Below, piece after piece: positions 37,631-60,100 of a stretch of DNA of 64,000 bases. The stretch's first letter is position 1, and every line of letters starts with the position of its first letter. Made by a program: the position numbers and the translations under genes. The stretch is from positions 99,450,001 through 99,514,000 of the forward strand of contig CM059432.1 of NCBI GenBank assembly GCA_030390025.1, in the 5' to 3' direction. The DNA is from Squalus acanthias. Taxonomy: Eukaryota. The notes beneath the pieces were generated by a model, which was given only the letters and a program-made list of their open reading frames with translations, did not search any database and was not told the origin of the DNA.

Positions 37631-38840
37631 CTGGGCAACTGTTGCTCTTGCTCTGCACACGTCATGCCGGTTTTCTGCTGGGTGACCCAAATAAATGCCA
37701 CTATCTCCCCACCTGCAACGGTTGCTCTGCTGCTGCTGGCTGTTATGCAACATATTACCGCTCTTCTGTGGCTTGCTCATTTTCCAAATCTATGGTAAGA
37801 TGGATATGGATAGCAATATTGTACAATATTCAGAAAATCTTGCAGACCTTCTATGGGAAACATTGTAAGCCCCTATCCTCCCTTAACAGCTCAAGCATCC
37901 AAAGCTTTAAATTCAAAATATCTACACAGTGCACCCTTATGCCTCACTGCAGCTGTTCACTGCTTGTATAAGGAGTTTGTGCAAATATATCATCAATTAT
38001 GATTGCAGCACAGAGCCTACTTCTCTGAGGAGCTAGACCTCCATTGTTCCTTCGTTTTTAACAGGCTGTGGCATGCTGGAAAACATTATAACACAGATAC
38101 TCCCTCACTCCCAGCACACACCATGCGCCGGATAGACACAACATCTGTGAGGTGTGCGGCATCTGTGAAGGCTACACGTCACCCAGATTTTCTGCCCTGG
38201 GGGATTATCTGCCTGCGCAGGCCCATCCCCCCAAAAGGGCCTTGTGCTGGGAACAGGTCAGAAACACGACCACAGCTATTGGCCTCGGTTCCTTTTGGAT
38301 GCTTCTGGAGATCCTGCTGAAACAACAAAAAGAATAACTTGTCATCAGTTTCCTTTTTAGGGTTGCCCCCAAACCACTGAAAGTCCACCACCAGCATTTT
38401 GTGCTGCTCCTGCATTTGGGCACCACATGGATGGATTTACAGAAAAATAGATGAGGGGTGCAGGAACGTTCTCTCCTGCATTCATTAGCATCAGCTTCCT
38501 GGGACTGTACCAATTGGAGGTACAGGATAGTTATGCCCACATAGATAAGGCCTGGAAAGCCAGGGCATCGTAGTGTGGGTAGAGGCCTGACATGACAGGT
38601 CTTTGCCCCCTTTTCGGCATCCGGGAATTGAATGTGCTTTCCCTGGGAAGCATGGATTGAGATGAGAGTCTAAATTTTGCTTGGCCCATCAGAAACCTCC
38701 AGCATGTCATTAATATGTAGGATGGGTTAATGGCCAGAACACATTGAAACCCTGCAAGTTTTCCTTGATCAGCTAGCACTCTTCCATCACAGCCTTTCTG
38801 TTGAAACTGAGTCGACTCAGGAATTGCTCTTCAACCATGT

Positions 38841-41800
38841 TGTAAAGTTCGCAATTATCGCGATTCAAAATAACATAAGAGAAGCAGATTCGTTTGATCA
38901 GTTTTATTAAACGAAATGCTGTCCTGATAATAAAGGACACAGAAGCCTGTAAAATGGCCGCCGCGCATCGTGGCAGCAGCTTCCAGAAACACAGTGGGCA
39001 GACAAGATGGAGTCGAATATACATTCAGTATAAGATTGGATCATAACAACAGAAAACGCTGGAAAAACTCAGCAGGCGAGGCAACATCTGTGGAGAGAGA
39101 AACAGAGTTAACATTTCAGGTCGAAACCCTTCGTCGGAACTGAAAGAGCAAGAAATAAACAGATAAAAATGCAAGGGGGAGGCTGGGGGGAGGAATAAAA
39201 GAACAAAAGGGATGGTCTTTAGTGAGTAGAGACATTAAGAGATGCTCAAGGCAAGACGAGATGGTAATGGGACAGGTTGAGAAACAAAAGGTAAGGTGTG
39301 AAATGCTGACAGAATCAGAGACAGCTGCCGTGGGGGGAGAGAGAGAAAAAAAGGAAAAAGGCACGGACCAAACGAGTGGATAAAATGTGTACATATGTGG
39401 TAGGGGCCGGGGTTATGATCTGAAATTGTTGAACTCGATATTGAGTCCGGAAGGCTGTAAAGTGCCTAAACGGAAGATGAGGTGCTGTTCTTGGAGCTTA
39501 CGCTGCGCTTCCGTGGAACAATGCAAGAGGCTGAGGACGGTGAGGTCTGAGTGAGCGTGGAGGGGTGAATTAAAATGACAAGCGACCGGAAACTCGGGGT
39601 CACCCTTCCGGACTGAACGGAGGTGTTCTGCAAAGCGGTCACCCAATCTGCGTTTGGTCTCCCCAATGTAGAGGAGACCACATCGTGAGCAGCGAATACA
39701 GTATACTAGATTGCAAGAAGTACAAGTAAATCGCTGTTTCACCTGAAGGGGTGTTTCCCCTTCCAGGTGAAACAGCGATTTACTTGTACTTCTTGCAATC
39801 TAGTATACTGTATTCGCTGCTCACGATGTGGTCTCCTCTACATTGGGGAGACCAAACGCAGATTGGGTGACCGCTTTGCGGAACACCTCCGTTCAGTCCG
39901 GAAGGGTGACCCCGAGCTTCCGGTCGCTTGTCATTTTAATTCACCCCTCCACGCTCACTCAGACCTCACCGTCCTCGGCCTCTTGCATTGTTCCACGGAA
40001 GCGCAGCGTAAGCTCCAGGAACAGCACCCTCATCTTCCGTTTAGGCACTTTACAGCCTTCCGGACTCAATATCGAGTTCAACAATTTCAGATCATAACCC
40101 CGGCTCCTACCACATATGTACACATTTTATCCACTCTTTTGGTCCGTGCCTTTTTCCTTTTTTTCTCTCTCTCCCCCCACAGCAGCTGTCTCTGATTCTG
40201 CCAGCATTTCACACCTTACCTTTTGTTTCTCAACCTGTCCCATTACCATCTCGTCTTGCCTTGAGCATCTCTCAATGTCTCTACTCACTAAAGACCATCC
40301 CTTTTGTTCTTTTATTCCTCCCCCCAGCCTCCCGCTTGCATTTTTATCTGTTTATTTCTTGCTCTCTCAGTTCCGACGAAGGGTTTCGACCTGAAACGTT
40401 AACTTTGTTTCTCTCTCCACGGATGTTGCCTCGCCTGCTGAGTTTTTCCAGCGTTTTCTGTTCTTATTTCGGATTTCCAGCATCCGCAGTATTTTGCTAT
40501 CGTAAGATTGGATCATACTTGGTAAACATTGATAAAGACAGGATGCAACCCGTTTGCATTGTGAACAATAGCAATGATATAAGTGCTGGAATCGTTTTCC
40601 TATGCACAGTAAGGATCATTGTACTGAGCAATCGAAGGCCCATCCAGACACATCAATACACAAATACCCCCCTGGCTCTACAATGAGAGAGACATCGACG
40701 GGTGATTAAGCAAGTATTCGGGGGGCCCCAAAACCAGTCAGGGAGACGATTCATACACATCCTGGCTGGGTCAACAATGGGGAAAACATTAACGGATAGT
40801 TGGCCAGTTTCAGGTGCTACCGAAACCCGTTAAAGAAGATAATCGCCCCATGCTGGGAGTTTTGAGCGCCAATATTACACAAAGGACAAACATTAAGATT
40901 TGAGCGGGAGATAAGCCGGCACATCACTATAACTATAGAGAACAAATGTCCATCGCCCTCTTGATTCGACTCTTGTCTCTCTGGTATCGCTTTCCTGGAC
41001 GGTCAGCCTCTTGTTTTTCTCTCTGGACTTTGTTGACTCTTGACTCTTAGCCGTACTGGTCGGTTATTCGAGTGTTGGGTGGAGCTCAATCGGGACAAGC
41101 CGCCCCGACAAGGGCAAGTAACAGGGTACACCATCCCGAGTGTCGGTAAACGGTGTCTGGACCCGGAGGCCCGAGGAGACGAGACGAGAAGAAGACGAGA
41201 AGAAGACGAGAAGAAATTCCACGTGCCACCATGGTCAGTAAACCCCGAACGGGGCCGAAAATATAAATACAGGACTCTTCTTTGAGTTCTACCGACTACA
41301 ACCTGTGTCGAGCACAGGAAGACTCTTCTTTGAACTGTGTCCGAGGTCCGTCGAGTTCTTCATGACAACAGAGAGTCTGGCCTGTTTTTTGCAGCAGCGA
41401 AAGTAAACAAGTGGGGTGCAGAGACCCTTCCAGGCACATGACAGTCAGGCGCTGCAGCGAAACGAGCTGAGTGCCTCACTTTAAAATCTCCGAAGTAAAA
41501 CGAGTGGTGAGCATGATTTCCGATCCTACAAATCTAGACGTAGTGTAGGTATTGATAAGGGAGGGTGGTTTTAATAAGGTTAAGATATAATGTGTTCCCC
41601 TTTCTACGATGTGCCGTGTGTTCTCCATTTCCATAGACCAAGCTTTATGAATGTATGTATACTTGTACTATCTTTGATTTGCGCCTATGACATGTATTTC
41701 ATGATTTTAGACGCCATGCAATAAAGATTTCCATTTCGTACTATTCAACCGGGTCTATTTGAGTTTTTCTCTGCATTACTGCTCCCTGCACCTAAGTCCA

Positions 41801-41943
41801 GTGTTAGAACCGTAAGGGCGAGTGGGTCGAACCACTCACAGGTGCTTATTGCAAAAAGGTTGGCCGGAGACCAGAGCAAGCAATAGTATAGGCAACGAAG
41901 GCCTAACCTCACACCAGCACCGTCTGAGACACGCCCCCTTAGA
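38841..41943 (+). repeat. 5' LTR (interrupted by Penelope palindrome 39046-40502)
   Basis: Aligns with 52126-53745 (4 differences in the first 205 bp). TATA-like tataaa at ~41263 and AATAAA at ~41720. Ends ttaga versus ttaca in the 3' LTR. Confidence 0.93.
39046..40502. mobile_element. Head-to-head inverted pair of Penelope-like 3' fragments (GIY-YIG plus tail), ~700-bp arms
   Basis: KQRFTCTSCNLVYCIRCSRCGLLYIGETKRRLGDRFAEH on both strands. Centre aagggg-tgttt-cccctt. 15-bp TSD taagattggatcata (39031-39045, 40503-40517). Confidence 0.92.
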
Positions 41944-41947
41944 GAAA

Positions 41948-43745
41948 ATGGCGACCGCGGCAGTGCACTGGCAGCAGGAGAGTAATGTTTTAGACCCTGG
42001 TTTGAATAGGCGAAATGTGATGGATGAGAGGGTAGCCGACTATGTGTTTGGGAAGGTTAACTTAACCAAAAAGTGGATAAGTGACCTACTGATGGATAAG
42101 CGTCCACTAGACGTCGCCATCAAATGGACAGGCAGTAAAGATCATAAGAAGTCGGTAGAGAAAGCGGTCTGGCTGATGTGCTACAAGAAGCAAGTCCAAC
42201 TTTCGGACCAGGTCATTGCAGCACAGGCAGCTCAGATCAGGGAATTGGAAGTTGAGATGGAGGAAAAGGTCACGGGAGGACAGAAACTCATTGCATCATT
42301 GAATGCGTTACATCAGGAATGACAAATAGTAGCCAACCACCATGAGGCTAAAATTGATTACCTAGAATGTCAGGTCACGGAAGCAAAATTAAACGAGGGT
42401 AGGATTAGAGAACGGTGTGTCCGCCTAGCTAACCAGATAAAAGCCCAGGAAGAAAGCTTGAAGGGAGTTAGGGCGGCATACAAGATGGCCCTCGAGGATA
42501 GGCATGAGGGAGCTGACCACAGTGTTTGCCAGAGGGAGATAGAGAACCTAAGAGAGTCCCTGAGTAAGGCAAACGGCTTGGTGTGTCTCATCAGCCCGTC
42601 AGCGAGCCAGCCACAGGTGGGTAGGGAATTCCCAAAATCACTACCGGAAAAAGCAGAAGTGGTATCTGCCACTATACCCTCCGCGCCACCCAGCTATTCG
42701 GCAACCTGGGTAAGGGAGGAAGTGGTGGAAATAGAGAAGAAGGTTCCCGAGGTAGGACAATCCCCGGAGGTAGTGTCGAGACCGGGACCGATGTGTCCGC
42801 TCCGAGGTCACAAGAGAGGCCCGAATGGGAACAATGGGGAAGACGGAGATGTCTTGAACCAGCTTGTATTGCCCCACAGCTCACACCAGCTGAGAGCAAT
42901 GATTAGCCATGTACGGAAGCTGTCCGAGTCAGATGACCCTTCCGTACATTTTAGGCAAGTAGAACAGACCGCAGCAATTAATGGCTGCGACGACGAGGAA
43001 AAGACCAAAATGTTGCTGTTCTCCTTAGATAGCTCGATCCTTCAGTGTCTCTCCGACGAGAGCAAGAAGGGAAATAAAACCTATGGGGAGTTACGGGACG
43101 AGGTCCTAGAAGTGTTAGGGGCGGATGATGAAGGCCCGTTCGTCAGATTGAGTCAAACCATACAGATGGAGGGAGAACCCCCGAAGGTTTTCGCCGACAG
43201 ACTGGCCAGTATACCAGCGTAGCTGCCCAGCTGCGCCAGCGCGCACCTATCTGGACGGCGCCGGGAAAGCTCATTGGCTCAGGTGTCTAGTAGCCAACAG
43301 CTTGCCAGCCGTCAGGGAGCAGGCCAGAGCGTGGTTTGATCCCACTAACCCCGCCACAACGGAGGAATCTGTCCTGAATCGACTCACCATAGGGTATTGG
43401 AACACTAGGAGCACGGGAGCGCGTCCCCTTAAGGGAAAGGTGCATGAAGCAAAGCCCGCAGCTCCGGCTCAGAAAGAGTGGCATCAGGAGGGAAATCGCG
43501 CCCCACAAACCAGTAGTGTTTGTTACGGGTGCGGGAAGACAGGTCACTGGCGTAAAAGCTGTAGGAATCCCTGGAAGGATTCCAGGGAAAAAGCTCCCGC
43601 AGTCCGAACCCAAGCGCCTGTCTCTGAGAAAGGAACTGGTGTGCCTATCCCTCCCGACGCGATAGAATCAATGTTAGGAGCCATGCGGTCTCTTATGACC
43701 TCACACGGGGAGGTAGCAACAGCCCCATACAACCCAGGCTTCTGA
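41948..43745 (+). pseudogene. gag: gag (coiled-coil N-region, capsid MHR-like motif, CCHC zinc knuckle); one in-frame stop at 42320-42322 and a frameshift at ~43200
   Basis: Kozak-context aaaATGG. ORFs 41822 and 42458 share a frame. QMEGEPPKVFADRL is MHR-like; CYGCGKTGHWRKSC is the knuckle. Confidence 0.85.
41949..41963 (+). promoter_or_regulatory. Primer-binding site, complementary to the 3' end of tRNA-Arg(UCG)
   Basis: TGGCGACCGCGGCAG just downstream of the 5' LTR. Vertebrate tRNA-Arg-TCG ends ...CCTGCCGCGGTCG-CCA (from memory). Confidence 0.8.
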
Positions 43746-44855
43746 CTGGAACCGGCGCAGCCTGCCTACCTGTGTCCCCTTGAAAGACACGCACAGGAGG
43801 GGGCCTCCTGTAAGGAGGCCAGGTTAAAAGAGCAGGCCTTGCGGGAGGAGAACGCCCGCTTAATGGGGAAAGTAGACGGGCTAGAAGGGCAGCTTAGAGA
43901 GCAGGCCTTACGGGAGGAGAACGCCCGCTTAATGGGGAAAATAGACGGGCTAGAAGGGCAGCTTAGAGACATAAAAGCAGCCTACAGGGTAGCCAGGAGC
44001 AGAGAGTATGAGGTTTTAAACCATGGGCCCTGTGAGGAAAGGTTAAAGGGTCTGACCCAAGCCCTATCCAAAGCCAGAGGGATGGTTTGCTCAACAACCC
44101 CGGGGGAATTCACCACCCCGCAGTTGCAAGCCATGGTAGCAGAGTTGCCCAAACTAAAACAGAATAGAAATCTTCAGGCTCCAGCAGGCGAGATTACACA
44201 GAAGGCACAAGCAGGGGCGGTGGCCTGTCTTAGGGGAGGGGCCAGACCTGCAAGTGGGGACTCTCAGCCCCGGGTAGAACCGCAGGGCACACAGGCCGGT
44301 AAAGCAGCCTGCGTGAGGGGAGAAGATATTTTGGAAACGTGTAGGATCTTTTCTTGGTCTTGGGATTCAGATGAGGAAGAGCTCGGAGAGCTCGACCAAG
44401 GTAGTGACCCGGTCGGAGAGGTGGTGGGGTCGGAGGACGGAGGTTCCGCCCTCGACCCAAGCATAGGGGAGATAGGGATTGCGAGTGGAGTTCCACTTAC
44501 TGGGGAAACAAGTAGGGTGGAGTCGGAAACCACAGATCCCGAGCCCAGGGGGGCGGAGCCAGGGGAGACAGAGCCGGCGTCTGTGGTGGGACCACAGGCC
44601 GTGACGGTGGAAGTCCCGGTTCCCGGTCCGTCGGTCCTGGAGATCTTGCCCAAGGTAGCCCTCCGTAGGTCAAGTCGGACACCCCAGCCCAGGAAGCTGT
44701 GGTCAAATCCCTCGTACACCCCCAGGCGTAAGTTCAAGGCAGCCCAGGGAGATCCCAGTCCCAGCTCAGCAACGACAGGCTGCGGCAGATCAAAGGCAGG
44801 GGTCAGTGCCCCCGCGCCACTGGGAAAAGCTCGTGGCAGCCTTCGCAGAATTTAG
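43746..44855 (+). CDS. ORF2 in the pol position, in frame after the gag TGA: diverged Gag coiled-coil copy plus acidic/Pro-rich and basic tail; no PR/RT/RH/IN motifs
   Basis: Frame is open from TGA-CTG to TAG at 44855. Ungapped similarity to gag (KAAYRVA..HGPC..LSKARGMVC versus RAAYKMA..HSVC..LSKANGLVC). Confidence 0.65.
   Translation: MEPAQPAYLCPLERHAQEGASCKEARLKEQALREENARLMGKVDGLEGQLREQALREENARLMGKIDGLEGQLRDIKAAYRVARSREYEVLNHGPCEERLKGLTQALSKARGMVCSTTPGEFTTPQLQAMVAELPKLKQNRNLQAPAGEITQKAQAGAVACLRGGARPASGDSQPRVEPQGTQAGKAACVRGEDILETCRIFSWSWDSDEEELGELDQGSDPVGEVVGSEDGGSALDPSIGEIGIASGVPLTGETSRVESETTDPEPRGAEPGETEPASVVGPQAVTVEVPVPGPSVLEILPKVALRRSSRTPQPRKLWSNPSYTPRRKFKAAQGDPSPSSATTGCGRSKAGVSAPAPLGKARGSLRRI
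43829..43969 (+). repeat. 69-bp in-frame tandem duplication (23 aa x2)
   Basis: EQALREENARLMGK(V/I)DGLEGQLR occurs twice. Confidence 0.9.
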
Positions 44856-45274
44856 GTAGGCCGCCCTGGGAACGGGCGGCGCTGTACAGTTAAGTTTAGG
44901 ATAAGTTTAAGTTTATAGGGGTAGAAATTAGGTCGCGCCCCATTTGGGGCGCAAATATCGTCCGAGCGCAAATATTAGCGCCTGGCGCTAATTATCGGCA
45001 CTGACAGGAAACTTCACTTTTACCGCCCCGGGAGGTGAGTGGAGCGCTAAATTAGGCGCTGCACACCTCTCTTAAGGCGCAAAGGCCTAGGAGTGAGGCG
45101 CTACCTCAGCGCACGAGCGCAGCGCAGCTGCTGCCAGTTAGCGAGGGAACACAGACACACTGGCGCCAGACACTTCTTAAAGCGGGGGGGGCCACTTGCT
45201 CTCCAGCCACACCCTGCTCATTGCAGCCTTGAATCTCAGCCTGGAGAGACCTGTAATCCATTTTGCTGCCAAGC

Positions 45275-47205
45275 ATGGAGAGGGTGAGAGAACGCGCTCA
45301 TCGCTTCACCGAGCGGGCCTTGGATGCTCTGGTTGACGCAGTGGAGCGCAGACGATGCATGCTGTTCCCGGAGAGTGGCAGGAGGCCTTTGCCACGCGAG
45401 TTCAGAAGAGTGTGGAGGGAGGTGGCTCAGAGCGTCTCCTCCAGGAGCATGGTGCCCAGGACCCATGTTCAGTGCCGCAAAAAGTTCAACGACCTCACTC
45501 GGGTCGTCAGGGTGAGTGGCTTTTTCTCAATACCTCTCCATCCCTCCATCTCAACCTCACTCTATGGCCAGAGGGTCTTAAAACCCCAATGCACAACACT
45601 CATCCAACACCTATGGCCCTTTCATCAAACACACACACACATTCCACACTTTGCATACAGTAAGGGCTATTCACCTATGGGAGGCACATCAGGCAAGACC
45701 ATGGCTGTATACAGTAAGGGCTATTCACCTATGGGAGGCACATCAGGCAAGACCATGGCTGTATATTGTAAGGGCTATTCACCTATGGGAGGCACATCAG
45801 GCAAGACCATGGCTGTATATTGTAAGGGCTATTCACCTATGGGAGGCACATCAGGCAAGACCATGGCTGTATATTTACTCAGATGCTGTCCTTTTTCTTG
45901 CAGGCTAAGCTGGCTCATAATCGGAGACAGCAGCAACGGACGGGTGGAGGGCGGCTTCAGCTGCAACCCCTCAGCGATCTGGAGGAGCGCGTCCACAGGA
46001 TTGTGGCAAGCCGGGTGATCGGTCCCGTCGCCACTGGGGACGCCGACCCCGTTGTGGACAGCAATGGTAAGGTCATCACCTTTTTGTCCTCTGTCCTTCC
46101 ACTTGTCCCTCACAATACCAGCCTTTGACACTTTCAATCCAACTTGCTAACTCGCTGCACTTATTCCTCCCTTACTGCCACCCTGTCCTCACGCTAAAGC
46201 CACTCTTGTACCTCCCTGCTTTCAGATGGTGATTCACCAGCTGAGGAGACGGGCCCTGAAGCTGCCACTGGGAGTGATGCTGCAGCTGAGGAGGAAGAGG
46301 AAGCCGGAGCATCAGTGCCACCCTCTCCCGAGGAAGCCCATGGCCACACTGGGAACACGCCTTCCCCGGAGGGGAGCAGGGGGGAAGGGGCTGATGATGG
46401 TGAGGCTCCAGGACCCAGCGGGCTGCAGCAACGCCATGGGGGGGGGAGGGAAGAACGGGAGCCTTCTCCCCAGAGGGAGAGTATGCCAGACACTCCTACT
46501 GCAATGGACGCAGAGGAGGAGCGGCTGATTGCAGAAATGAACAGCCAGGCGGTGGGCATGCACACTGAGCTCATGGGTGCAGTGGGAAGGGTGCCCGAAT
46601 GCATTGAGGCAATGGCAAGGAGTGTGGAGCACTTCGCTGTAGCACAGGCGGATGCCACACTAAAGCTTAGTGCTGCAATTCAGTCACTGGCTGCCAGGAA
46701 CCCATCTGAGACTGCTCTCATGCAGACTCAGATTGAGGCCACGCGAGCACTGACTGCTGCCATCCTCGATGGTTCGTGCACATGTCCCCGGGGCTGTCAC
46801 CGCGCCGCAGCAGGCCAGCAATCTGTTCTCCGGCAAATTGCTCCGGATGCTGAAGTGCTGCCCCGTGGGAGTGCCAGTGTGTCGGGCGAGCAGGGAGTTG
46901 CTGTCCTCTCTCACGATGACAGCATTCCTGCTGCCAACACTGTCACTTCTCCACTGCACTTGCCACCGCCTGTAGGACAGACTGCTGCCGCCCATGCAGA
47001 GTTGGTGCAGTCTGCAGCCGGGCCCTCCAGGCCCAGAAGTGGTCGAGGCCGTCCTTCAGGGGCATCTGCAGTGTCAGGGTCTGACGAGCAGCAGCCTTCC
47101 ACCAGCCTTGCTGCAGCCACTGAGGTCCCATTACGGAGGAGCAGTAGGGTTAGAAGAGGGGAAGTGCGCAAGGGAAGGAGATCACCCTCGAAGGGCAAAA
47201 AGTAG
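45275..47205 (+). CDS. Harbinger Myb/SANT-like protein, 3 exons (45275-45511, 45904-46066, 46226-47205), predicted 459 aa
   Basis: RFTERALDALVDAV...WREVAQSV...RTHVQCRKKFNDL Myb-like domain. GT-AG introns in phases 0 and 1 keep the frame open. Confidence 0.85.
45656..45873 (+). repeat. 54-bp minisatellite x4 in intron 1 of the Myb gene
   Basis: taagggctattcacctatgggaggcacatcaggcaagaccatggctgtata at 45661, 45715, 45769 and 45823. Confidence 0.95.
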
Positions 47206-47499
47206 GAGGTGTGCCAAAATGCTGGTCATTTTTTTATTAAAGGCCGAGGTTCATGGCCCAACTTTTGTTTAGTGTTTTGGACATTATCTCCAGGTTGTGA
47301 GAACCAGTTATGTTATTGACTGTTTTTTTGTGTTTATTTCTATGAGTTTGTCATGAGGAATTGACACACACAGAGTTTGTAAAATAAATAAGTTTCTGTA
47401 TTCAAAATATACATGGCTGGTGGTTGGAATTATTGGTGCCTTGGCCGGCTTAGGGGTTGCGTGCTGGGTTGATTCGTGTTTGTAGCAATGGCAGGGGCC

Positions 47500-48660
47500 C
47501 TAGAAGCGGCTTGCTATTAGTCGTTGACGGACGGCCCTTGCAGTTTGACCATTGTGGGCCGCCCTCCTGCCTTGGTGCTGCTGATGATCATCGTCCTCGT
47601 CCTGTTCCTCCTCTTCCTCCTCCTCCTCTGGTGGTGCTGCAAGGCCTGGTGGCATTGGCTGGGTCCTGAGGATTGCCATGTTGTGCAACATGCAGCACAC
47701 GACTACGAACTTCGAAACTTGCTCAGGCGAGTACTGCAGGGCTCCTCCGGAATGGTCCAGACAGCGGAACCGTTGTTTCAGCACGCCGATTGTGCGCTCA
47801 ATAATGTTCCTGGTTGCTTGATGGCTTTCCTGGTACCGCAGCTCAGCAGGGGTGTTTGGCGTACGGAGCGGTGTCATCAGCCAGGTGCTCAATGCGTACC
47901 CCTTGTCCCCCAGAAGCCAACCAACTGGCTGATGCGGTGCCTCGAAAAGTTCTGCCACAGTAGTCTGGCGCAGGATGAAAGCATCGTGGCAGCTGCCCGG
48001 ATAGTGGGCATTGACAGCGAGAATCACCTGTCTGTGGTCACAGACCAACTGCACATTCAAGGAATGGAACCCCTTTCTGTTCCTGAATTCCTCTGCATTC
48101 TCTCGCGGAGCACGCAAAGCCACATGCGTGCAGTCAATGGCGCCCTGCACCATGGGGAAGCCCGCTACCCTCGCAAAGCCCATAGCACGGTCATGCTGCT
48201 TGTCTGGGGTCATAGGGAAAGAGATGAAGTCTCGTCTCCTTCTGAAGAGGGCATTGGTGACCTGCCGGATGCAGCGATGCACCGCAAACTGGGAGATATT
48301 GGCGAGGTCCCCAACAGCAGCTTGGAATGAGCCAGTGGCGTAGAAGTTCAAAGCCACTGTGACCTTCACTGTCACCGACAGAGACGTCCTGGACCTCAGC
48401 TGAGGCTGCAGATCTGGCTGCAGCAGGTGGCAGAGCTCAGTGACCACCTCCTTGCTGAATCGCAGCCTTCGCAAACACAGCTCCTCGGACATATGGATGT
48501 AGGAGAGCTGTTCACGATATACCCTGGGAGGGTAAGCTCTCCTGTACATGCGCCTGATGGCCCTCCTCCGTCTGGCCATCATTGCCACTCTCTGTCTGCG
48601 TCTCACTATCCTCCGATTCAGCTGGAGCAGGACGACGCCCCCAATCATTGCAGCCCCCAT
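47500..48660 (-). CDS. Harbinger DDE transposase, 386 aa, intact (copy B)
   Basis: Same DDE motifs as copy A; about a dozen aa differences. Confidence 0.95.
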   Translation of the reverse strand: MGAAMIGGVVLLQLNRRIVRRRQRVAMMARRRRAIRRMYRRAYPPRVYREQLSYIHMSEELCLRRLRFSKEVVTELCHLLQPDLQPQLRSRTSLSVTVKVTVALNFYATGSFQAAVGDLANISQFAVHRCIRQVTNALFRRRRDFISFPMTPDKQHDRAMGFARVAGFPMVQGAIDCTHVALRAPRENAEEFRNRKGFHSLNVQLVCDHRQVILAVNAHYPGSCHDAFILRQTTVAELFEAPHQPVGWLLGDKGYALSTWLMTPLRTPNTPAELRYQESHQATRNIIERTIGVLKQRFRCLDHSGGALQYSPEQVSKFVVVCCMLHNMAILRTQPMPPGLAAPPEEEEEEEEQDEDDDHQQHQGRRAAHNGQTARAVRQRLIASRF

Positions 48661-49382
48661 ATTCTCTTTGCCAGAAAAGTAATGAGATACAGCAACTAAA
48701 GTAGCAACAAAGTTAGGATGAACTAGGCCAAACTACCTCACAAAGCGTTGAGTCAATGTAGAAGTCTCTCTCTCTCTCTCTCCGAATCTCTCTCTCTCTC
48801 TCAGAACGAGTGGTGCATAAATGTCGACCACAGAAAAAGACAGGAAGAGGCCCCCTTTAAATAGCGCCCCCACCAGCCCCACACCGATTGATAACATTCC
48901 AGTCTTCCGGTCGTTGGAAGCGCCAGGCGGTAAGGCAGGGGGCGCCACTCAATTTCCGCTCCGGGGCGCCCCAAGGGCATTGCACCATGGAATGACGTCA
49001 CAATCTGCGCGCGCAGGTGGTCGCAGCGGTAAGTTTTAGCGCCGCCGCACAATCTCAAGTTAAGTTCTCGAGCGGCGCAAACAGCGCTGCGCCCGGGCGT
49101 TAGCGGCTTAACGCCCCATTAGCGCCCTCTTAAGGCGCTAACGGGAGGCGCAACCAAGTGAATTTTTACCCCATAGTGTTTTAAGTTTGGTAAGTTTGTA
49201 GTTTAATTTTAAAAGTAAATGGTAAAATGATGGGAGTTAGTGATAGGAATAGTTAAAGTCTATCCAGCATACATGTCTTTGTATGTGAGACAAGGTCAAG
49301 GGACCCGCTCACCCTTCACAAAAGCCAGAGACTCTTGGGAGGCTGGCTACATCATTTTATCTGATCACAGGAACCAGGAGAG

Positions 49383-51735
49383 ATGGAAAGGATTCTGATA
49401 GTCCTCGCAACGATCGGATATGGATTGGCCTATCGGGGCCTCACCAAGGATGTCGTTGTGTTCGGTTGCTCCGGGGACACGGCCCCCATCGCGACGGATG
49501 GGACCGGGGAGCGAAGTGCTGAGGAAACCACCACTTATTTCCACAAGGGAAGGTGGCTGGGATGGCTGGGAATGAATTCAATGGAATACTCCAGCGCATC
49601 CGGATTTGCCTGCAAAGAGACTTCTTTACTGTCTCCCAGGGTGAGGATCATTGCACCCAGAATCAGCGTCACAGTCGGCAAAAGGATTTATTTGACGTGC
49701 AATGGGAAGGTCCCATTGAGCCGATGATGGTGGTTATGGAAGTTAAGCAAGACTATGAGAAATTCCTCGGTCGAGTGGGAACGATTGGGTAACAATACCC
49801 ATCGGACAATTACGGGGACTAACGGACAAGTGAAAGTCTGTTGGGACAAATGGTGGGAACCGGATGAGGGAATATATGTTTGTATGTGGGGATCGAAGTA
49901 CGTTTGCCCCAAGGGTATATCCATATTTCTCCTACAACAGTGGCAGGATGCCGGGAAAGGGATGAGGTGGGACGTCAGCACTCGGGGGTGCGGAGCTCCA
50001 TTCTCCCCGATCCCGGTAAACGCCACTGAACTCATCACGCGCCCACGCAAGTCTCCTCCCACGATTCCGGTGGCTTTGGCTCAGGAGGAAGGGTGCCCTA
50101 AAACCACTAAGGGGCCCGGGAATGGTCTGGTACTGGTGCCAACAGATCAGATACTGTATCAGGGGGTACATTACGCGGTGGCCTCGGTGATTCTAAATCT
50201 CACCGAGGTGCACTTACCAGAGTGGTGCCCCAAAGAAACGGAACAATTGTACCAGGTCCTGTTAACAAACATGTTCAGGCAATTTTATGAGTTTGATTTT
50301 GCAGAGGTTGACAAAACAAGCTTATACACCACACCACACAAAGTTTTGGGTCAGGTGGGGAGACAAAGAAGGGGTATTGTGAACGATGTGTTCACTGCTT
50401 TTAATACGGGAACATCTGTGGTCAACGCTCTAGACAATGTGGAGCTGCAGACCCAGATCAACGGTTTAAAAACACAGTTAAAAAGCATCCTCACAAACGA
50501 GAACAAGGTAGTAGGGTCTGAGTTACATGAGGACCAGGCCATGACACTACACTTAAAAGAGATTATAGCAGAGCTGGAGAAGCATGCGAGAACGGTAAAT
50601 GCCCTGATCAGGGAAGATCGAAATGCATCCGATCAAGCTGCACAGAACGAGGTGTACGTACCATATGGGGCGTGGTTACTGGGCGAGGGCCGCAGTAATT
50701 TGGAGGATTTAAAACAAGGTTTGGTCCCGTCCTGGATAAGTAACAAACACCTGCAGGCGCTCCACCCTTTTCAGAACGCATTAAGCCCGTGCCAGCTCAG
50801 GCTAGCCTCAGAGGCATACCCAGTCCCAGTGGACTGCGGATGGTCAAATCATACTATCATGGGGATAGTAGTATGGATGCCGGTGTTGGGCGACACAGCA
50901 AAGCCCGCCCCAGTGTACCAGGTGGAGAACATTGGTGTCATTCAGTGGGGAGCCCACATTCGCTACGCAGCGGTCCCCACCTTACGTCATCCACTGGGAG
51001 CAAACGATGACAGGTACCGACCTCTCGGGTTGTCGTGGCCGGGGAGCACACATCATCCTGTGTCCCCAGCACTTCAATGCCTTTTTAACACCACAATGCG
51101 GGTTCAGAACGGCTGGCGCGAAGCCCATGAATTGCACCATGGAAGCAATGACACAAGATCATGTGCCCCCACAGGCGGCATACATAGGGGGTGGAACGTA
51201 TTGCGTTACCACTGCAGCGCAACACTACCAGCATGGACAGCACAGCCGGTGTCCGGTGAGTGACAGCAGTTTCTGTTTTAAACCCAGGGCTGAAGTTCAA
51301 GTGGCACAACAGCGAATTGTCCCGATCCCTGAACCATCCACTGTTCACCTCACAGTAAAAGAGAATTTCACAGACTTGCAGCGATTTGTCGCACATTTCG
51401 GGTACATCATTCCCCCTCTCCCTGAACACCTCACCAAGATTTTAAAAGCCGTCATGGTATCACAGAAACATTTTTACACCCTGGAGCAAAAGACTGTAGA
51501 GATAGGGGCAGAGATATTGGACAAAGTAATCCCACCGTGGTGGGATCTGTTCACTAATATTGAAGTCCCGTCCTGGATCAGGATAGCCTCCCACATTTTA
51601 GTAGTGTGTCAAGTTGTAATTGTAGTGTACCTATTGGTCGTACACTGCAAAAGAGGCAAACGCCTCACAAGGCAGGAGTACACAGGGGAGTGGAGAGAAC
51701 GTTACGTGCGCGTGAATGAGGAAAGTACCACGTAA
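49383..51735 (+). pseudogene. env: env: signal peptide, Ig-like domain, furin site RQRR, fusion peptide/heptad repeat, Cys-rich region, TM; in-frame stop at 49725-49727 and frameshift at ~50977
   Basis: MERILIVLATIGYGLA signal. ORFs 49383 and 49755 share a frame. RQRR/GIVNDVFTAF at 50361-50372; TM ILVVCQVVIVVYLLVV followed by KRGKR. Confidence 0.88.
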
Positions 51736-52116
51736 ATGGCCAGGATGACGCCGCTCCATTTTACCATGTGTGTTTTTGTAGTTGTTGTTAGTTATGAGTA
51801 TGTGTAACTAAGTTTGGAACTTTTGTATTTTTAAAATAGTTGGTTTGATTATTTTTCCTTTTACAATAAAACATGCATATACAGGTGGTGCGAGAGGCAT
51901 CGGCCTTTTGCACCTGGAAGGCATATACGCAGTGTAAGTTTAAAGGCAATGCTGCCTACGATTTGTCCAAGATAGACAATGTGTTTTCTCTGGGAAATGA
52001 GGACTGCATGGAGGCCCTAGATAGTTTAATTACCGGGAATGTTTGGATGTGGAGAATGGGGATAATTTGCTCACCAGCATTTAATTGATACGATAAGCGG
52101 AGTTATTCGCATCAAC

Positions 52117-52124
52117 AGGAGGGA
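52117..52124 (+). promoter_or_regulatory. Polypurine tract
   Basis: aggaggga immediately before the TG of the 3' LTR. Confidence 0.65.
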
Positions 52125-52125
52125 C

Positions 52126-53745
52126 TGTAAAGTTCGCAATTATCGCGATTCAAAATAACATAAGAGAAGCAGATTCGTTTGATCAGTTTTATTAAACGAA
52201 ATGATGTCCTGATAATAAAGGACACAGAAGCCTGTAAAATGGCCGCCGTGCATTGTGGCAGAAGCTTCCAGAAACACAGTGGGCAGACAAGATGGAGTCG
52301 AATATACATTCAGTATAAGATTGGATCATACTCGGTAAACATTGATAAAGACAGGATGCAACCCATTTGCATTGTGAACAATAGCAATGATATAAGTGCT
52401 GGAATCGTTTTCCTATGCACAGTAAGGATCGTTGTACTGAGCAATCGAAGGCCCATCCAGACACATCAATACACAAATACCCCCCCGGCTCTACAATGAG
52501 AGAGACATCGACGGGTGATTAAGCAAGTATTTGGGGGGCACCAAAACTAGTCAGGGAGACGATTCATACACATCCTGGCTGGGTCAACAATGGGGAAAAC
52601 ATTAACGGATAGTTGGCCAGTTTCAGGTGCTACCGAAACCCGTTAAAGAAGATAATCGCCCCATGCTGGGAGTTTTGAGCGCCAATATTACACAAAGGAC
52701 AAGCATTAAGATTTGAGCAGGAGATAAGCGGACACATCACTATAACTATAGAGAACAAAGGTCCATCGCCCTCTTGATTCGACTCTTATCTCTCTGGTAT
52801 CGCTTTCCTGGACGGTCAGCCTCTTGTTTTTCTCTCTGGACTTTGTTGACTCTTGACACTTAGCCGTACTGGTTGGTTATTCGAGTGTTGGGTGGAGCTC
52901 AATCGGGACAAGCCGCCCCGACAAGGGCAAGTAACAGGGTACACCATCCCAAGTGTCGGTAAACGGTGTCTGGACCCGGAGGCCCGAGGAGACGAGACGA
53001 GAAGAAGACGAGAAGAAAATCCACGTGCCGTCACGGTCAGTAAACCCCGACCGCGCCCGAAAATATAAATACAGGACTCTTCTTTGAGTTCTACCGACTA
53101 CAACCTGTGTCGAGCACAGGAAGACTCTTCTTTGAACTGTGTCCGAAGTCCGTTGAGTTCTTCATGACAACAGAGAGTCTGGCCTGTTTTTTGCAGCAGC
53201 GAAAGTAAACAAGTGGGGTGCAGAGACCCTTCCAGGCACATGACAGTCAGGCGCTACAGCGAAACGAGCTGAGTGCCTCACTTTAAAATCTCCGAAATAA
53301 AACGAGTGGTGAGCATGATTTCCGATCCTACAAATCTAGACGTAGTGTAGGTATTGATAAGGGAGGGTGGTTTTAATAAGGTTAAGATATAATGTGTTCC
53401 CCTTTCTACGATGTGCCGTGTGTTCTCCATTTCCATAGACCAAGCTTTATGAATGTATGTATACTTGTATTATCTTTGATTTGCGCCTATGACATGTATT
53501 TCATGATTTTAGACGCCATGCAATAAAGATTTCCATTTCGTACTATTCAACCGGGTCTATTTGAGTTTTTCTCTGCATTACTGCTCCCTGCACCTAAGTC
53601 CAGTGTTAGAACCGTAAGGGCGAGTGGGTCGAACCACTCACAGGTGCTTATTGCAAAAAGGCTGGCCGGAGACCAGAGCAAGCAATAGTATAGGCAACGA
53701 AGGCCTAACCTCGCACCAGCACCGTCTGAGACACGCCCCCTTACA
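52126..53745 (+). repeat. 3' LTR (1620 bp)
   Basis: tgtaaag...ccttaca, followed by ATGT TSD. Confidence 0.95.
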
Positions 53746-55379
53746 ATGTGCAGGTAGCTAATTCTGTTGTGGTAAAGTAACACCATGGGGTACTACCTTT
53801 AATGTGTCATTGGACGTGAAATTGCCTTTGGTGATAGCGTGAATCAGGCAATAGCGAATCGGCAGTCCATTTTACACGATACTCGAATTTCTTTTTCACT
53901 GAAGCCTCTTTCAACAGTGGGCACAGTCCTCTGTATTATTCAGTTTTGTTTTGATATTTTGTAACCTTGCCCTTCAGTAAATGCACTCACTTCAGATCTC
54001 ATCTGGAATTTAACATTCCTTTTTCAATTTTTTCCTACCTTATATAATTCTCCATTAGTTTTTTTTATTGGTTTTAACAAAGCCTTAACAAGGAAATGGC
54101 TATTTGTACTTTCATTTTTCATCCTGCTAAACCTGTCAGTTCACAGAAAATCATTGAGGAAAGTCATTTTGCAGCAAGTTAGCCCTATAAAGTAGACATC
54201 CCACTTATCCATGTGCCGCTGAAGTAGCTTCTATTGTATATGTTTTTTTGAAGAGAACTTAATAGTGTGGGACAAGACTACAATAAATGAAGTGAGTGAT
54301 TTCTTGCAAGTGGATTTGGAATGAAGCAATCTTTAGTGCAATCCATTGGGGCTTTCTACTGGAAGCGCACCACATATACCGATAATATTTTTTCTAAAAT
54401 GGTATACATGCCAGGATTGGAGCCCGAGCAATTTCAGGGCTCACATGTTATTTAGAAATAAAAGAACAGATAAAGGTGGAAATACACTGCAGGCCAGTCA
54501 GCATATGTAAAGTTTGTCAGAAGGATACATACCCAAAATGTCATAATCAGTCTTTTTTTCTTTACAATGCTGACTGACCTGCTGTGTACTTGCAGCTACA
54601 TCTATTTTTTATTTACAGCATTTGTAGTTTTTTCATCTTATTTTACCTATTCTTCAGACATGGCCCTGATTTTATCTCCAGTTGGATTCCCTGCTCAGGC
54701 CTGAGTTAAAATTACAGTCGGGTCTCAATTATGTCATCGGGCCGCAACATGCACATGTAAAGAAGGACCCAGTTGGCTTCAGGCATGTGTCCTTGCTGCC
54801 TACTTGGGAGAGCAGGTTAAAATTGCAGATGTTGCAATCATGGCAGCTTTCACACAGGTCGATTTTAACTGCCCAGCCACCAGGTTTCTGCTGAGCAAGT
54901 AAGTTGTGAAATCCAACTTTGGTAGGGGTGCAGAATGGATGGTAGTAGATAGGCCGCCCTTTATAGTTTGACTTCAATGGAATTTAAAGCTACGTGGGTA
55001 TATAATGGGCGGCCTGTCAGCTAACGTCCATTTTGCGCCACTGCTGAAGTTGAATTTCAGCTCCCTAATCTCGTAATCCAATTAACAATGGTATTTATAT
55101 TGGGAAAAGAAAATGGTTTGGAGAAATTGATAATGATTTAGTCTTATTCAAAATACATCTGGGCTGGAGGAGCACAGTAAAGTAAATGGTTAAATTGTGT
55201 GCAGAAAAGCTGAGCAATCTTGTTTGTGGCATAAATTATTAACCTTTAGATATTTTGCCCATTTTTGGACAAGGGAATCATATTTGGCCCTTGATATTTC
55301 AACAATAAATAAAAATACATAACTACTCTGTAAGAAAAGACTGATGGGATAAAATAAGATACATTTACATCCAAGATAA

Positions 55380-57030
55380 CATTCCTCATCTCCTCTGGAG
55401 AGCTTCCCTCCACAGCCGCCAACCTCATAGTCCCCCAACCCCGCACAGCCCGTTTCTACCTCCTTCCCAAGATCCACAAACAGGACTGCCCTGGTAGACC
55501 CATCGTTTTAGCCCGTTCTTGCCCCATGGAACTGATTTCTTCCTATCGCGACTCTATTGTATCCCCCCTTGTCCAGTCTCTTCCCACCTACATCCGCGAC
55601 TCTTCCGACGCCCTCTGCCAATTTATGGGTTTCCAGTTTCCTGGCCCAACCGTCTCTTATCACTATGGACGTCCAATCCCTCTACACCTCCATCCCCCAC
55701 GAGGGCAGCCTGAGGGTGCTCCGCTTCTTCCTTGAACAGAGGCCCAACCAGTCCCCATCCACCACCACCCTCCTTCGCCCGGCTGAACTTGTTCTCACAT
55801 TGGACAACTTCTCCTTTGACTCCACTCACTTCCTCCAAATTAAAGGTGTTGCTATGGGAACCCGCATGGGTCCTAGCTATGCCTGCCTTTTCATGGAATA
55901 TGTGGAACATTCTTTGTTCCAGTCCTACTCAGGTCCCTTCCCTCACCTCTTTTTCCGGTACAATGATGACTGTATCGGTGCAGTTTCCTGCTCTCATGCT
56001 GAACTAGAAAATTTCATTCACTTTGCTTCCAATTTGCACCCTTCCCTCACCTTCACATGGTCCATCTCCGACTCTTCCGTTCCCTTCCTTGACTTCTCTG
56101 TCACCATTTCTGGGGATAAGCTATCGACAAACATCCATTATAAGCCCACTGACTCCCACAGCCACTTGGACTACAATTCCTTCCACCCTTCTTCCTGTAA
56201 GGACTCTATTCCATTCTCCCAGTTTCCCCGTCTCTGTCGCATCTATTTTGACGACGCCACCTTCCATACTAGTGCTTCCGATATGTCTTCCTTTTTCCTC
56301 AACCGAGGATCCCCCTCTACCGTGGCTAACATGGCCCTCAACTGTGTCTGTTTCATTTCCCGCACTTCTGCTCTCACCCCTTCCCCTCCCTCCCAGAACC
56401 ATGATAGGATTCCCCTTGTCCTCACCTTTCACCCACCAGCCTCCACATTCAACGGATCATCCTCCGCCATTTCTGCCACCTCCAGCGTGATCCCACCACC
56501 AACACATCTTCCCCTCACCTCCCCTTTCAGCATTCCGAAGGGAATGTTCCCTCCGAGACACCCTGGTCCACTCCTCAATCAGCCTCAACATCCCCTCCCC
56601 TTCCCACGGTACCTTCCCGTGCAAGCGCAGAAGATGTAACACCTGCCCTTTTATCTGCTCCCTTCCCACTGTCCAGGGCCCCAAACACTCTTTCCAGGTG
56701 AAACAGCGATTTACTTGTACTTCTTGCAATTTAGTATACTGTATTCGCTGCTCACGATGCGGTCTCCTCTACATTGGGGAGACCAAATGCAGATTGGGTG
56801 ACCACTTTGCAGAACACCTCCATTCAGTCCGTAAGCGTAATCCCAAGCTTCCGGTCGCCTGTCACTTTAATTCTCTGCTCCACTCCCACTCTGAGCTCCC
56901 TGTCCTCGGCCTCTTACACTGTTCCAATGAAGCTCAACGCAAGCTTGAGGAACAGCATCTCATCTTTCAATTAGGCACTTTACAGCCTTCTGGGCTCAAC
57001 ATCGAGCTCAACAATTTCAGACCATAACCT
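55380..57030 (+). pseudogene. Penelope-like element RT plus GIY-YIG endonuclease, frameshifted
   Basis: FYLLPKIHK...GRPIV, TMDVQSLYTSIP, GVAMGTRMGPSYA, FRYNDD, PFLDFSV, LVYCIRCSRCGLLYIGET. Confidence 0.92.
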
Positions 57031-57192
57031 CAGCTTGTACCTGATATTTTCTTTTCGAAAGGAAGACAAAATCCTGAATAACTTACTTTTTGCAATGAAC
57101 AGAAGCCAACTTATCAAATGACGGGATGCTTGCCTTGATTTCCCGACATTTATGCTGTCGTTCAATATCTTGTTCAGGGGTAACAACAGTCT

Positions 57193-60100
57193 GACCTAGA
57201 AATTGGATATGGCCCGAAAACGTGTGGTGTCGTGGCCCAGCGCCATTTAGCTGCGCTGGGTCAAAGTGATCTAGGTAGCACGCAGAATTCGTGCTGAGTG
57301 CTCATTTACATGATTATAGTGCTGATCTCAGTGCTAAAACTGCTGCTCATTGGCTTACCACTCAACAGGTGGGCCAATATCAGGCTCAGTCTAATTTTAA
57401 ATCATGTTTAGCCTTGGCTTTCTCCACTACTTAAACAGGAGGCTCTTGGATGCAGCAGCACCTCATTGTCATTCTATTTGGAGCTCCACGTGGAATTAGT
57501 AGTAACTTGCAAGAGATGACTGAGCAGCAGCAGAGGGAAAGAGCTAAATGGTTCTCAGATGCGGCTCTGGAGGCACTGGTGGTGGCCGTGGAGAGGAGGT
57601 GGGCTGTCCTCTTCCCAAAGGGTGGCAGGAAGCCATCGGCTCATACGTCTAGAAGGCTCTGGCAGGAGATGTCTGCATACGTGGGCGGCCAGTACGGTGG
57701 CCCCCAGATCATTGATACAGTTTAACATAAGAAGTTTGATGACCTCACACAGCAGGTCAAAGTGAGTGAAGGCTTCAGCAAATGCCACATCCCACCATCA
57801 GCACCGCAAGTCTCACAAACCGCTCAATTCACCACACCCCCAGCACTCACCTTACCAACAATCTCTACCTATCAGCACTCAGACATCACAATCATGACTT
57901 CATTTCACCCTCACAACCTTACCACTGCTGCAACACTCACACCCACATCTCACACCTTGCACACACTGACAGCTATTCAACTATGACAGGCACAACACCC
58001 AAACACATTGCACCACACTCACTGACACACTTCCCTTTCTCTTGCAAGTTAAGGTCATTCACAATCGCTGGGAGCAGTGGTAGACAGGTGGGGGCAAGCA
58101 GCAATACAGGTCCTGAGCCAACCGAAGGAGAGAGTGCTGGACATCATTGGAAGGGAAGCCATCGAGGCCGTGGCAACAGGCGAGGATGAAACTTTTGGGG
58201 ACAACAATGGTACGCTCATTCCTAATCCTTCTTCTCACATCTCACTTCCCCCTCATCCCACAATCTCTTCTGACTTACAAGCTGCTGATGCTGTATGCAT
58301 GCATATCTTGCTTCCCCCCTCCCCTCCCCTCACTATAACCTGACTCTTGTGCTTTTCTGCTTTCAGATAACCAAGAACTGCCAGCCACAGAGCCTGTCCC
58401 CAAGGCGATGGAGGAAAATGAAGGCAGCACAGCGTCACTGCATCTGACACTCGCAGGCACCAGCTCAGAAACTGGCACTGCGTGAACTTTAGAGGCTAGT
58501 ATCGAGGCGGGATCTGCACAAGGTGAGGCACCGGGCACGAGTGGGCTGCAGCAATGCCAGGGGCTAGGGTAGCTCGGGGGTCAGCTCCCTGGAGGGATAG
58601 TTCGCGCATGAGTTCTGCTGCACACGACTCAGTCGAGGACCTTGATGCGGCGGCCTTCAGAAGAAGGGTGATGTGCATACACATTGAATTGCTAGGTGCA
58701 ATGGCAAGCCTGCCAGAGAGCCTCTCGGCAATGTCAAGGAGCATGGAGGAGTCCGCTTCCAACATTTCACAGGGCTTTGTGCAGAGCTTGGAGCCCAGGA
58801 TTTCCAGGTTGGAAATGATGGACAGCTCCAGGAGTGACTGTGTCAACGCAGCCATGATGGTGCGTGTGATGGGCGATGTCGCAGCTGCCCTTGTAGCACA
58901 AGCGGAAGCAACCCAACATCTTAGTGCAGCACTGGAAGCGCAGACCACTCTCCTCCAGTCTCAGCTTGCTGCCACCCAACCTCAGACTGCTGCCAACGTA
59001 CCTGGATTTACCAGTGTCAAACGGAGCTTTCAGGGTGTCGCAGCAGCCCAGCAATCTGTAGGAATGTTGACACACCGCCCCGGGGGAGTGGCAGTGGGTC
59101 TGTGGAGCAGGAAGCTGCTGTCCTCTTTCAGGATAGCAGCATTCCTATTATCCACTGCCACTCTGCCATTGCCCTTGCTGCTGCCTGTCAACCAGCCAGC
59201 CCGGACTGCTGCCGCCCATATCGGGCCTTCTAGGTCCAGAGCTGGTTGAGGTCGTCCTTCAAGGCCATCTGAATTCTCCCCATGGAAAATCAGCAGTCTT
59301 CCCCCATCCATGCCGCAGCCACTGGAGGAGCACTTTGTAGCAGCACTAGAGTAGGAAAGGGCACCCGAATAACAGGCACTAAGGGATTTCACAAGGGTGA
59401 TTAGTTGATATTGGCCAGAATTTTCATGCTGTCATATGTGCAGGATTGGAGGCGGGTTGGGAGTGAAAGTGGAAATAAATCGGTGCAGGTCAGGAACCCG
59501 CTGTCATCCCGCCTCCACACGCCTTTAACTTGGGCGCGTTTGCCAGCGCGGCAGTGACCCAAATGGCAGAGGCGGGCAACCCATTTTAGATCATTATTAA
59601 CTTGTTGTAACATCCTCAACCATCTTTTTAACCAGACCATTGCAATTTCACTGCATAACCATGGGAATCATGCAGCTCGGGAACCACATCTGTCAAGCTG
59701 AGGTGGAAGCTCAGAGGCCATTGATGCAGCTCATTAATGCACAGCATGGAAAGCACAATAAATACTGCCACCTGACACCTGCTTACTTTCCGAAGGGAAA
59801 TGTTGTTGCTGAGTGCATTTTCAGTGCAGATCTGGCTTTCTAGAGATGGCAACTGTTTTCAACAAATTCGGGAACCACTGTCACCTCATTACTACAACCT
59901 ATCACACCATTGACAGATTGCTTCTCTCATCTCTGCTTCACCTGCCATCTATTACATCAGCATGGGTGCCGTTTATACTGTCTCACCTTGGTCCTCAGAA
60001 TTGGACCACGATGAGCCCCAACACCAGGAGCAGCAGGCACACCAGCAGCAGTAACAACACCACCAATCTTCTCCTCAATGACCTGATGCTCCACAGGACA

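Follow-up and report, generated by a model that had tools for sequence, protein, structure and literature searches.

Mouse IAP 1-delta-1 is a non-autonomous element that has no env and has lost an internal part of pol, so that gag and what is left of pol form a single frame; this novel gag-linked frame is reported to aid the element's own mobilization in cis (available text of PMC6466679). Pol-less Athila elements of Arabidopsis, which belong to plant Ty3/gypsy, are long-lived, keep gag and env under selection and have recombined between distant families; the available text of PMC2410132 describes no in-frame filler open reading frame (ORF) behind their gag. Here we describe a comparable element from Squalus acanthias (GenBank assembly GCA_030390025.1, contig CM059432.1, positions 99,450,001 to 99,514,000 of the forward strand). 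Within this stretch of 64,000 nucleotides, hereafter the window, a provirus-like element at 38841-53745 comprises two long terminal repeats (LTRs), gag, an F-like env and, in the pol slot, an open frame named ORF2. It is like IAP 1-delta-1 in its internal pol loss and its novel gag-linked frame, but here a stop codon separates a whole gag from ORF2, ORF2 opens with part of a different gag, and the element retains env.

The element appears to resemble lokiretroviruses, which have a Gag with an N-terminal coiled coil (an "smc" part precedes their gag), a capsid fold and an F-like Env with a basic cleavage site, as far as the accessible part of PMC7947760 describes them. However, the element has no reverse transcriptase (RT), so its lineage cannot be placed among them, and according to the same part of that survey none was found in the six chondrichthyan genomes covered. 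Zebrafish BHIKHARI is likewise pol-less, but it consists of gag only and has a Gly-rich patch where the Squalus Gag has a CCHC knuckle (available text of bioRxiv 2024.03.25.586437). The accessible portions of these two sources mention no additional coiled coil occupying the place of pol. A wider search of literature listings, in a library short of most subscription papers and Repbase, did not turn up any description of an extra gag piece in that position, and the element is not described in the available parts of bioRxiv 2023.10.26.564294, PMC11521997 and PMC12440569.

The gag gene, its stop and the segments of ORF2 are arranged as follows.

41948-43745, plus strand: gag, encoding an N-terminal coiled coil, a capsid-like helical domain and one CCHC zinc knuckle; ends in TGA
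43743-43748, plus strand: gag stop and next codon, UGA-CUG, a candidate read-through site
43746-43814, plus strand: ORF2 residues 1-23, which include a faint resemblance to the MCP(L/V) motif of gag (5 of 12 residues identical to the element's own gag; 2 of 300 shuffles)
43815-44090, plus strand: ORF2 residues 24-115, corresponding to the C-terminal half of a Gag coiled coil; 23 residues are duplicated in tandem, and the H-x-x-C motif of the family is present
44115-44156, plus strand: ORF2 residues 124-137, the first capsid-like helix of Gag (TPQLQ helix)
44166-44855, plus strand: ORF2 residues 141-369 and the stop, low in complexity (G, A, P, S, E, R) and predicted to be disordered

A first-pass annotation made from the sequence alone had pointed out that gag ends in TGA-CTG with its frame open for 369 more codons. 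We confirmed this: the stop occupies 43743-43745, the open frame runs from 43746 to 44852, and TAG closes it at 44853-44855. The other five frames hold 5 to 20 stops each across ORF2, and the composition of the DNA gives an expectation of about 1e-6 for 369 open codons. No protease, RT or integrase motif was found between gag and env of the element; residues 1-23 probably represent the beginning of the pol frame that was lost.

The duplication in ORF2 spans 69 nucleotides (43830-43898 and 43899-43967) that differ at 2 of 69 bases. Once it is collapsed, ORF2 aligns to the gag coiled coil without gaps at 26 of 69 identical residues, so that both the duplication and the identity count of the first-pass annotation were reproduced. 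That annotation allowed that the similarity might vanish after shuffling, which it did not: none of 2000 shuffles matched the local score of 138 against the middle gag piece, and none of 3000 heptad-preserving shuffles, with a maximum of 57, reached the coiled-coil score of 120. Other helical ORFs of the window scored 21 to 40. Because these controls score far lower, residues 24-115 are truly homologous to the Gag coiled coil, beyond the bias common to coiled coils. The homology continues to residue 137, in that the TPQLQ helix matches the element's own gag at 6 of 12 positions (2 of 3000 shuffles) and two other gags at 11 of 16 (P0009) and 10 of 14 (P0006). The spacer between coiled coil and capsid helix is 8 residues long in ORF2 versus 98 in gag.

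ORF2 is thus composed of half a coiled coil, one capsid helix (14 capsid residues) and about 230 low-complexity residues, with no zinc knuckle; structure prediction gives a confident long helix for the coiled-coil part and disorder for two thirds of the whole. "Second Gag," the name it had been given, claims too much for this content. A protein search with ORF2 yielded no homologue among 8000 candidates of 202 to 646 residues. For its tail, Atlas gave no match, a fold comparison with the viral library yielded nothing at E≤0.001, and no retrieved protein matched significantly. The tail had been likened to integrase C termini on the strength of an LRRSSR-type motif; this motif occurs five times in the window, four times outside ORF2, three of these in copies of a Harbinger DNA transposon. 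The motif is therefore not diagnostic, and by itself it does not support an integrase origin. A Pfam match to Rab11-FIP3 at residues 29-56 fell below the cut-off and was taken as generic coiled coil. The H-x-x-C motif (44022-44033 in ORF2, 42514-42531 in gag) lies at the break between two coiled-coil helices in the aligned gags as well as in ORF2, and could be a metal site between chains. Two short related motifs of the form QAG-x-x-x-C-x-R-G were also seen in the tail, at 44208-44236 and 44292-44320.

We examined other copies as contigs in 4 of 22 listed sequencing runs, which carry three organism labels and come from three studies. The material comprised the best 40 of 426 substitution entries and 32 pieces; three indel entries lay outside those considered. 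Contigs span all 30 bins of the region in each of the four runs, linked by overlap and with no single piece covering the whole stretch. ORF2 is therefore a feature of the family, and the pol-less layout is common to many copies. The length changes listed within ORF2 are two insertions (+6 and +6), two skips (-69 and -186) and a duplication of 39 bases (+39); all five are multiples of three, which has a chance probability of about 0.004. Outside the reading frames, three of the four listed are not multiples of three. A variant letter within the ORF2 stop still gives a stop. The single-base length changes listed in gag come as compensating pairs, and one joint there skips 98 bases. The frame of ORF2, which the first-pass annotation had proposed to check in sibling copies, is thus maintained in this sample.

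The residues are held less tightly. The 186-base skip (44021-44206, 62 codons), seen in one contig in each of two runs, is in frame and deletes the part of ORF2 that most resembles Gag, namely the helix with the H-x-x-C motif and the one from the capsid; the first of the two QAG motifs begins where it ends. The 40 substitutions include 24 in gag and 14 in ORF2; those located at the breaks in gag (three) or within the stop of ORF2 (one) were left out. In gag, 13 of the remaining 21 are synonymous, compared with 29% under neutrality (p = 0.002), while in ORF2 the count is 4 of 13, compared with 30% (p = 0.58). The listed substitutions show no sign of amino-acid constraint on ORF2. An intact ORF2 in a single copy says little, because neutral simulations limited to substitutions and run to half the LTR divergence left it without a new stop in 68% of 4000 cases. 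The first-pass annotation had stressed that ORF2 is intact although gag and env are damaged; it is indeed intact, but the argument drawn from this is not supported.

As to the source of the gag piece, 66 coiled-coil columns were compared. ORF2 shares 23 of them with the element's own gag, 22 to 29 with six other gags and 17 with the distant P0013, whereas own gag and the skate gag P0001 share 41 of 66. Third codon positions of ORF2 match own gag at 20 of 64 sites, against 30 and 36 of 64 at the other codon positions, and blastn found no DNA similarity between the two. In AU tests with nine rows, a sister relationship of ORF2 and own gag was rejected (p-AU 0.02), while groupings of ORF2 with own gag plus the skate-type gags (0.054) or with P0016 (0.08) were not. 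The gag piece in ORF2 therefore did not arise by recent copying from the gag of this element. A tree of the 66 columns (P0018 left out, the motif retained) was poorly resolved, carried long-branch warnings and singled out no donor. The piece was either captured from a different lineage of gag or duplicated long ago; of the earlier proposal that a related element supplied it to the pol slot, the gag origin stands.

Read-through of the gag stop is plausible, judging from its sequence context. The hexamer UGACUG belongs to the type II (UGA-C) context, with UGA followed by CU and a long frame behind it, although it is a minor variant of the UGA-CUA/CGG hexamer, listed for Trocara virus, an alphavirus (PMC13517186, in the part available). 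No stimulatory structure stands out here. The same part of that source states that fish and frog retroviruses have UGA gag stops at which read-through is assumed but not verified. At the gag end of the Loki-Bsp consensus stands UGA-CUA (PMC7947760, from what is available of its supplement), and in a by-eye reading of that partial material the frame of gag continues as far as the protease-start motif, with which pol begins in other consensus sequences. The accessible main text of the survey makes no mention of readthrough or of a stop codon, so read-through in lokiretroviruses may have gone unremarked so far.

The explanation that we tentatively favor, at somewhat less than an even chance, is that a helper-dependent, pol-less family keeps a translatable frame behind a leaky stop and draws from it a benefit in cis, as in mouse IAP 1-delta-1. 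Pol would have been lost through deletion and recombination with another gag-bearing RNA, leaving the read-through junction in place, and a few percent of ribosomes would then make Gag-ORF2 where the parent made Gag-Pol. Selection would hold the frame open more than it holds the residues. Discounting a Harbinger insertion 62 bases 3′ of the ORF2 stop, about 5.5 kb of RNA lie 3′ of the gag stop and 4.4 kb 3′ of the ORF2 stop. Translation 1.1 kb into this 5.5-kb region might shield the genomic RNA from nonsense-mediated decay (NMD), which read-through of 1-5% inhibits (PMC5360307, available portion), and/or the nascent Gag-ORF2 fusion might favor packaging of its own RNA, as reported for IAP 1-delta-1. 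The anatomy, the homology, the spread among copies and the in-frame length changes are observed, while helper dependence, the recombinational origin, read-through and any benefit are inferred. Because the frame is kept while residues drift and blocks drop out, the pattern fits selection on translation better than selection on a folded product.

Several observations weigh against this explanation. Gag and ORF2 do not differ significantly in the proportion of synonymous changes (Fisher p = 0.16, two-sided), the substitutions represent the best-supported tenth of the entries, and three of those in ORF2 fall in the duplication, where contigs may map twice. The three indel entries outside those considered, and the letters between the ends of the 98-base joint in gag, which were not seen, bear on the count of length changes. 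Of 15 coiled-coil columns conserved in the family, ORF2 keeps 11, as would be expected if selection acts on the protein or if the capture is young. The gag TGA is likely shared by other copies, the evidence being that no variant falls at 43743-43748 among the best 40 of 426; none of the 32 pieces bridges the stop. Four RNA folds downstream of it are unremarkable (z from -0.29 to -1.64). Longer 3′ untranslated regions weaken the protection from NMD that read-through affords, according to the available text of PMC5360307, and 4.4 kb remain beyond ORF2. Finally, no pol-bearing parent was retrieved: a gag-plus-ORF2 profile found no Gag-Pol fusion among 7995 candidates of 1100 to 3140 residues, and locus scans for pol-bearing relatives returned nothing among viral contigs and metagenome contigs.

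Selection on translation need not be invoked if ORF2 is the leftover of a deletion and template switch, kept open through fast amplification from few masters and not meaningfully translated. The simulations, the neutral synonymous share, the blocks that some copies can spare and the failure to find a homologue of the entire ORF2 all accord with such an origin. We nevertheless consider it rather unlikely, since the five in-frame length changes and the kept stop recur across three organism labels and an open frame of this length is so improbable from composition; moreover, third positions are saturated relative to own gag while residues are kept, a pattern that could predate the capture. At the other extreme, the residues themselves might matter. 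Read-through would then add the coiled coil of another Gag lineage, docking the pol-less element into helper particles or hindering the helper, much as the first-pass annotation had suggested. True coiled-coil homology with a confidently predicted long helix, the retention of the 11 conserved columns and the H-x-x-C motif, a distance to other gags as small as or smaller than that to own gag, and a frame maintained across copies are all compatible with this role. There is also a precedent in RTL8, a partial gag-like protein beside the full-length PEG10, which enters and inhibits PEG10 particles (PMC11684626, as far as available). However, RTL8 is a separate host gene that resembles the capsid N-terminal domain and works on the capsid domain, according to the same portion of that paper, while ORF2 lacks such a domain and has only its 14 capsid residues. 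In addition, some copies do without the H-x-x-C and capsid helices, only one of five substitutions in residues 1-140 is synonymous (among the best 40 of 426), and the read-through product already carries its own coiled coil. Parasitism of helper particles, or interference with them, is a minority possibility, and we judge an adaptor or decoy function unlikely.

An extended form of that idea, a satellite retrovirus that makes a Gag-adaptor instead of Gag-Pol and whose coiled coil, taken from the helper lineage, mimics the helper and bridges satellite Gag and RNA into enzyme-bearing particles, appears distinctly unlikely. Least likely, in our estimate, is that ORF2 acts as an accessory protein whose synthesis needs no read-through and proceeds from a spliced RNA, from an internal ATG, or from an uninterrupted Gag-ORF2 frame in copies that lack the stop. 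ORF2 does contain four in-frame ATGs (43863, 43932, 44082 and 44133), one of them in a strong context, and skate and shark gags run some residues past the position equivalent to the gag end here, so that the stop may have moved. Yet the open frame starts right at the gag stop and precedes the first ATG by 39 codons, the strong-context ATG falls in the block that some copies lack, and the best 40 of 426 substitutions include none at 43743-43748.

The gag and env genes of this copy each have two lesions, as first annotated, and in each gene these are one in-frame stop and one frameshift. The gag frame is cut short by the stop at 42320-42322 and shifts near 43202; contigs of other copies have neither lesion. 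Gag homologues were found in skate and in sharks: identity to skate P0001 is 62%, 58% and 55% in the three stretches of gag. In the predicted structure of the skate homologue, a long coiled-coil helix at 68-183 is joined to a helical domain (mean pLDDT 50). A fold search with this model gave retroviral capsids as best matches, the top one being the capsid C-terminal domain of MLV at a weak E of 0.045. A sequence search of the PDB returned only zinc knuckles at E<0.001.

The env gene is the last coding region of the element.

49383-51735, plus strand: env, with a signal-like start, an RQRR cleavage motif at 50361-50372, an F-type fusion-like ectodomain and a transmembrane segment

An in-frame stop interrupts it at 49725-49727, and its reading frame shifts within 50872-51263. 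Atlas features place it at 0.94 to the Baculo_F and Fusion_gly clusters, with a recognition value of 1818, under the 2300 mark, which makes the resemblance to F-type fusion proteins a lead; a Pfam search of env gave no F-protein match. Two cysteines and a tryptophan at 49640-49900 are spaced in what we take to be the pattern of an immunoglobulin V-type domain. In whale shark, three gene models (P0011, P0014 and P0016) fuse pieces of this gag type with env-like stretches, which in two of the models match the present env at 35 of 101 and 29 of 59 residues; related gag-env elements therefore occur there.

The ends of the element and the insertions that interrupt it are as follows.

38841-41943, plus strand: 5′ LTR, about 1.63 kb of LTR sequence split by a Penelope-like palindrome; starts with TG and ends with GA rather than CA
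39043-40517, no strand assigned: palindromic insertion in the 5′ LTR, its Penelope-like fragment at 39046-40502, 1.46 kb, near-perfect, with arms 98% alike and a centre of 6 bases; foreign to the retroelement
41949-41963, plus strand: primer-binding site, overlapping the gag ATG
44918-49172, no strand assigned: Harbinger DNA transposon, with a Myb-like ORF on the plus strand and a DDE transposase on the minus strand (PF13359, E 8.5e-39), flanked by a 3-bp duplication; foreign to the retroelement
52126-53745, plus strand: 3′ LTR, with TG...CA ends, a purine tract just upstream and AATAAA at 53522

A target duplication of 4 bp (38837-38840 and 53746-53749) flanks the element. The primer-binding site is presumably of the tRNA-Arg(UCG) type, and skate gag P0001 has a like beginning. 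The LTRs differ at 35 of 1618 aligned columns (2.2%), which the shark rate that PMC4422223 assumes would convert to about 49 million years and the mammalian rate quoted there to about 5, in the part of that source available, an age that depends wholly on the rate chosen.

Insertion of the palindrome duplicated 15 bp of target. We take it to be the 3′ end of a GIY-YIG Penelope-like element, a family label assigned from its motif; a longer relative that includes RT lies at 55536-57047. Harbinger copies occur in the window at 1-2950, 44918-49172, about 18500-21900 and about 57850-61100. As the first two are approximately 98% alike and both have an intact transposase frame of 410 codons, the family looks young. 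Four tandem repeats of 54 bp at 45652-45867 lie within the Harbinger Myb-like gene and are apparently intronic.

The element belongs to a chondrichthyan lineage with a coiled-coil Gag and an F-like Env that is absent from the lokiretrovirus survey, as far as the available text of PMC7947760 goes. Pol-less retroelements are common, but one in which gag and env are accompanied by an open frame past the gag stop can serve as a natural test of what keeps a read-through frame in place without an enzyme. Such an element sets RNA stability and cis preference against protein contact as possible answers, and either would bear on how defective retroviruses outcompete their helpers.

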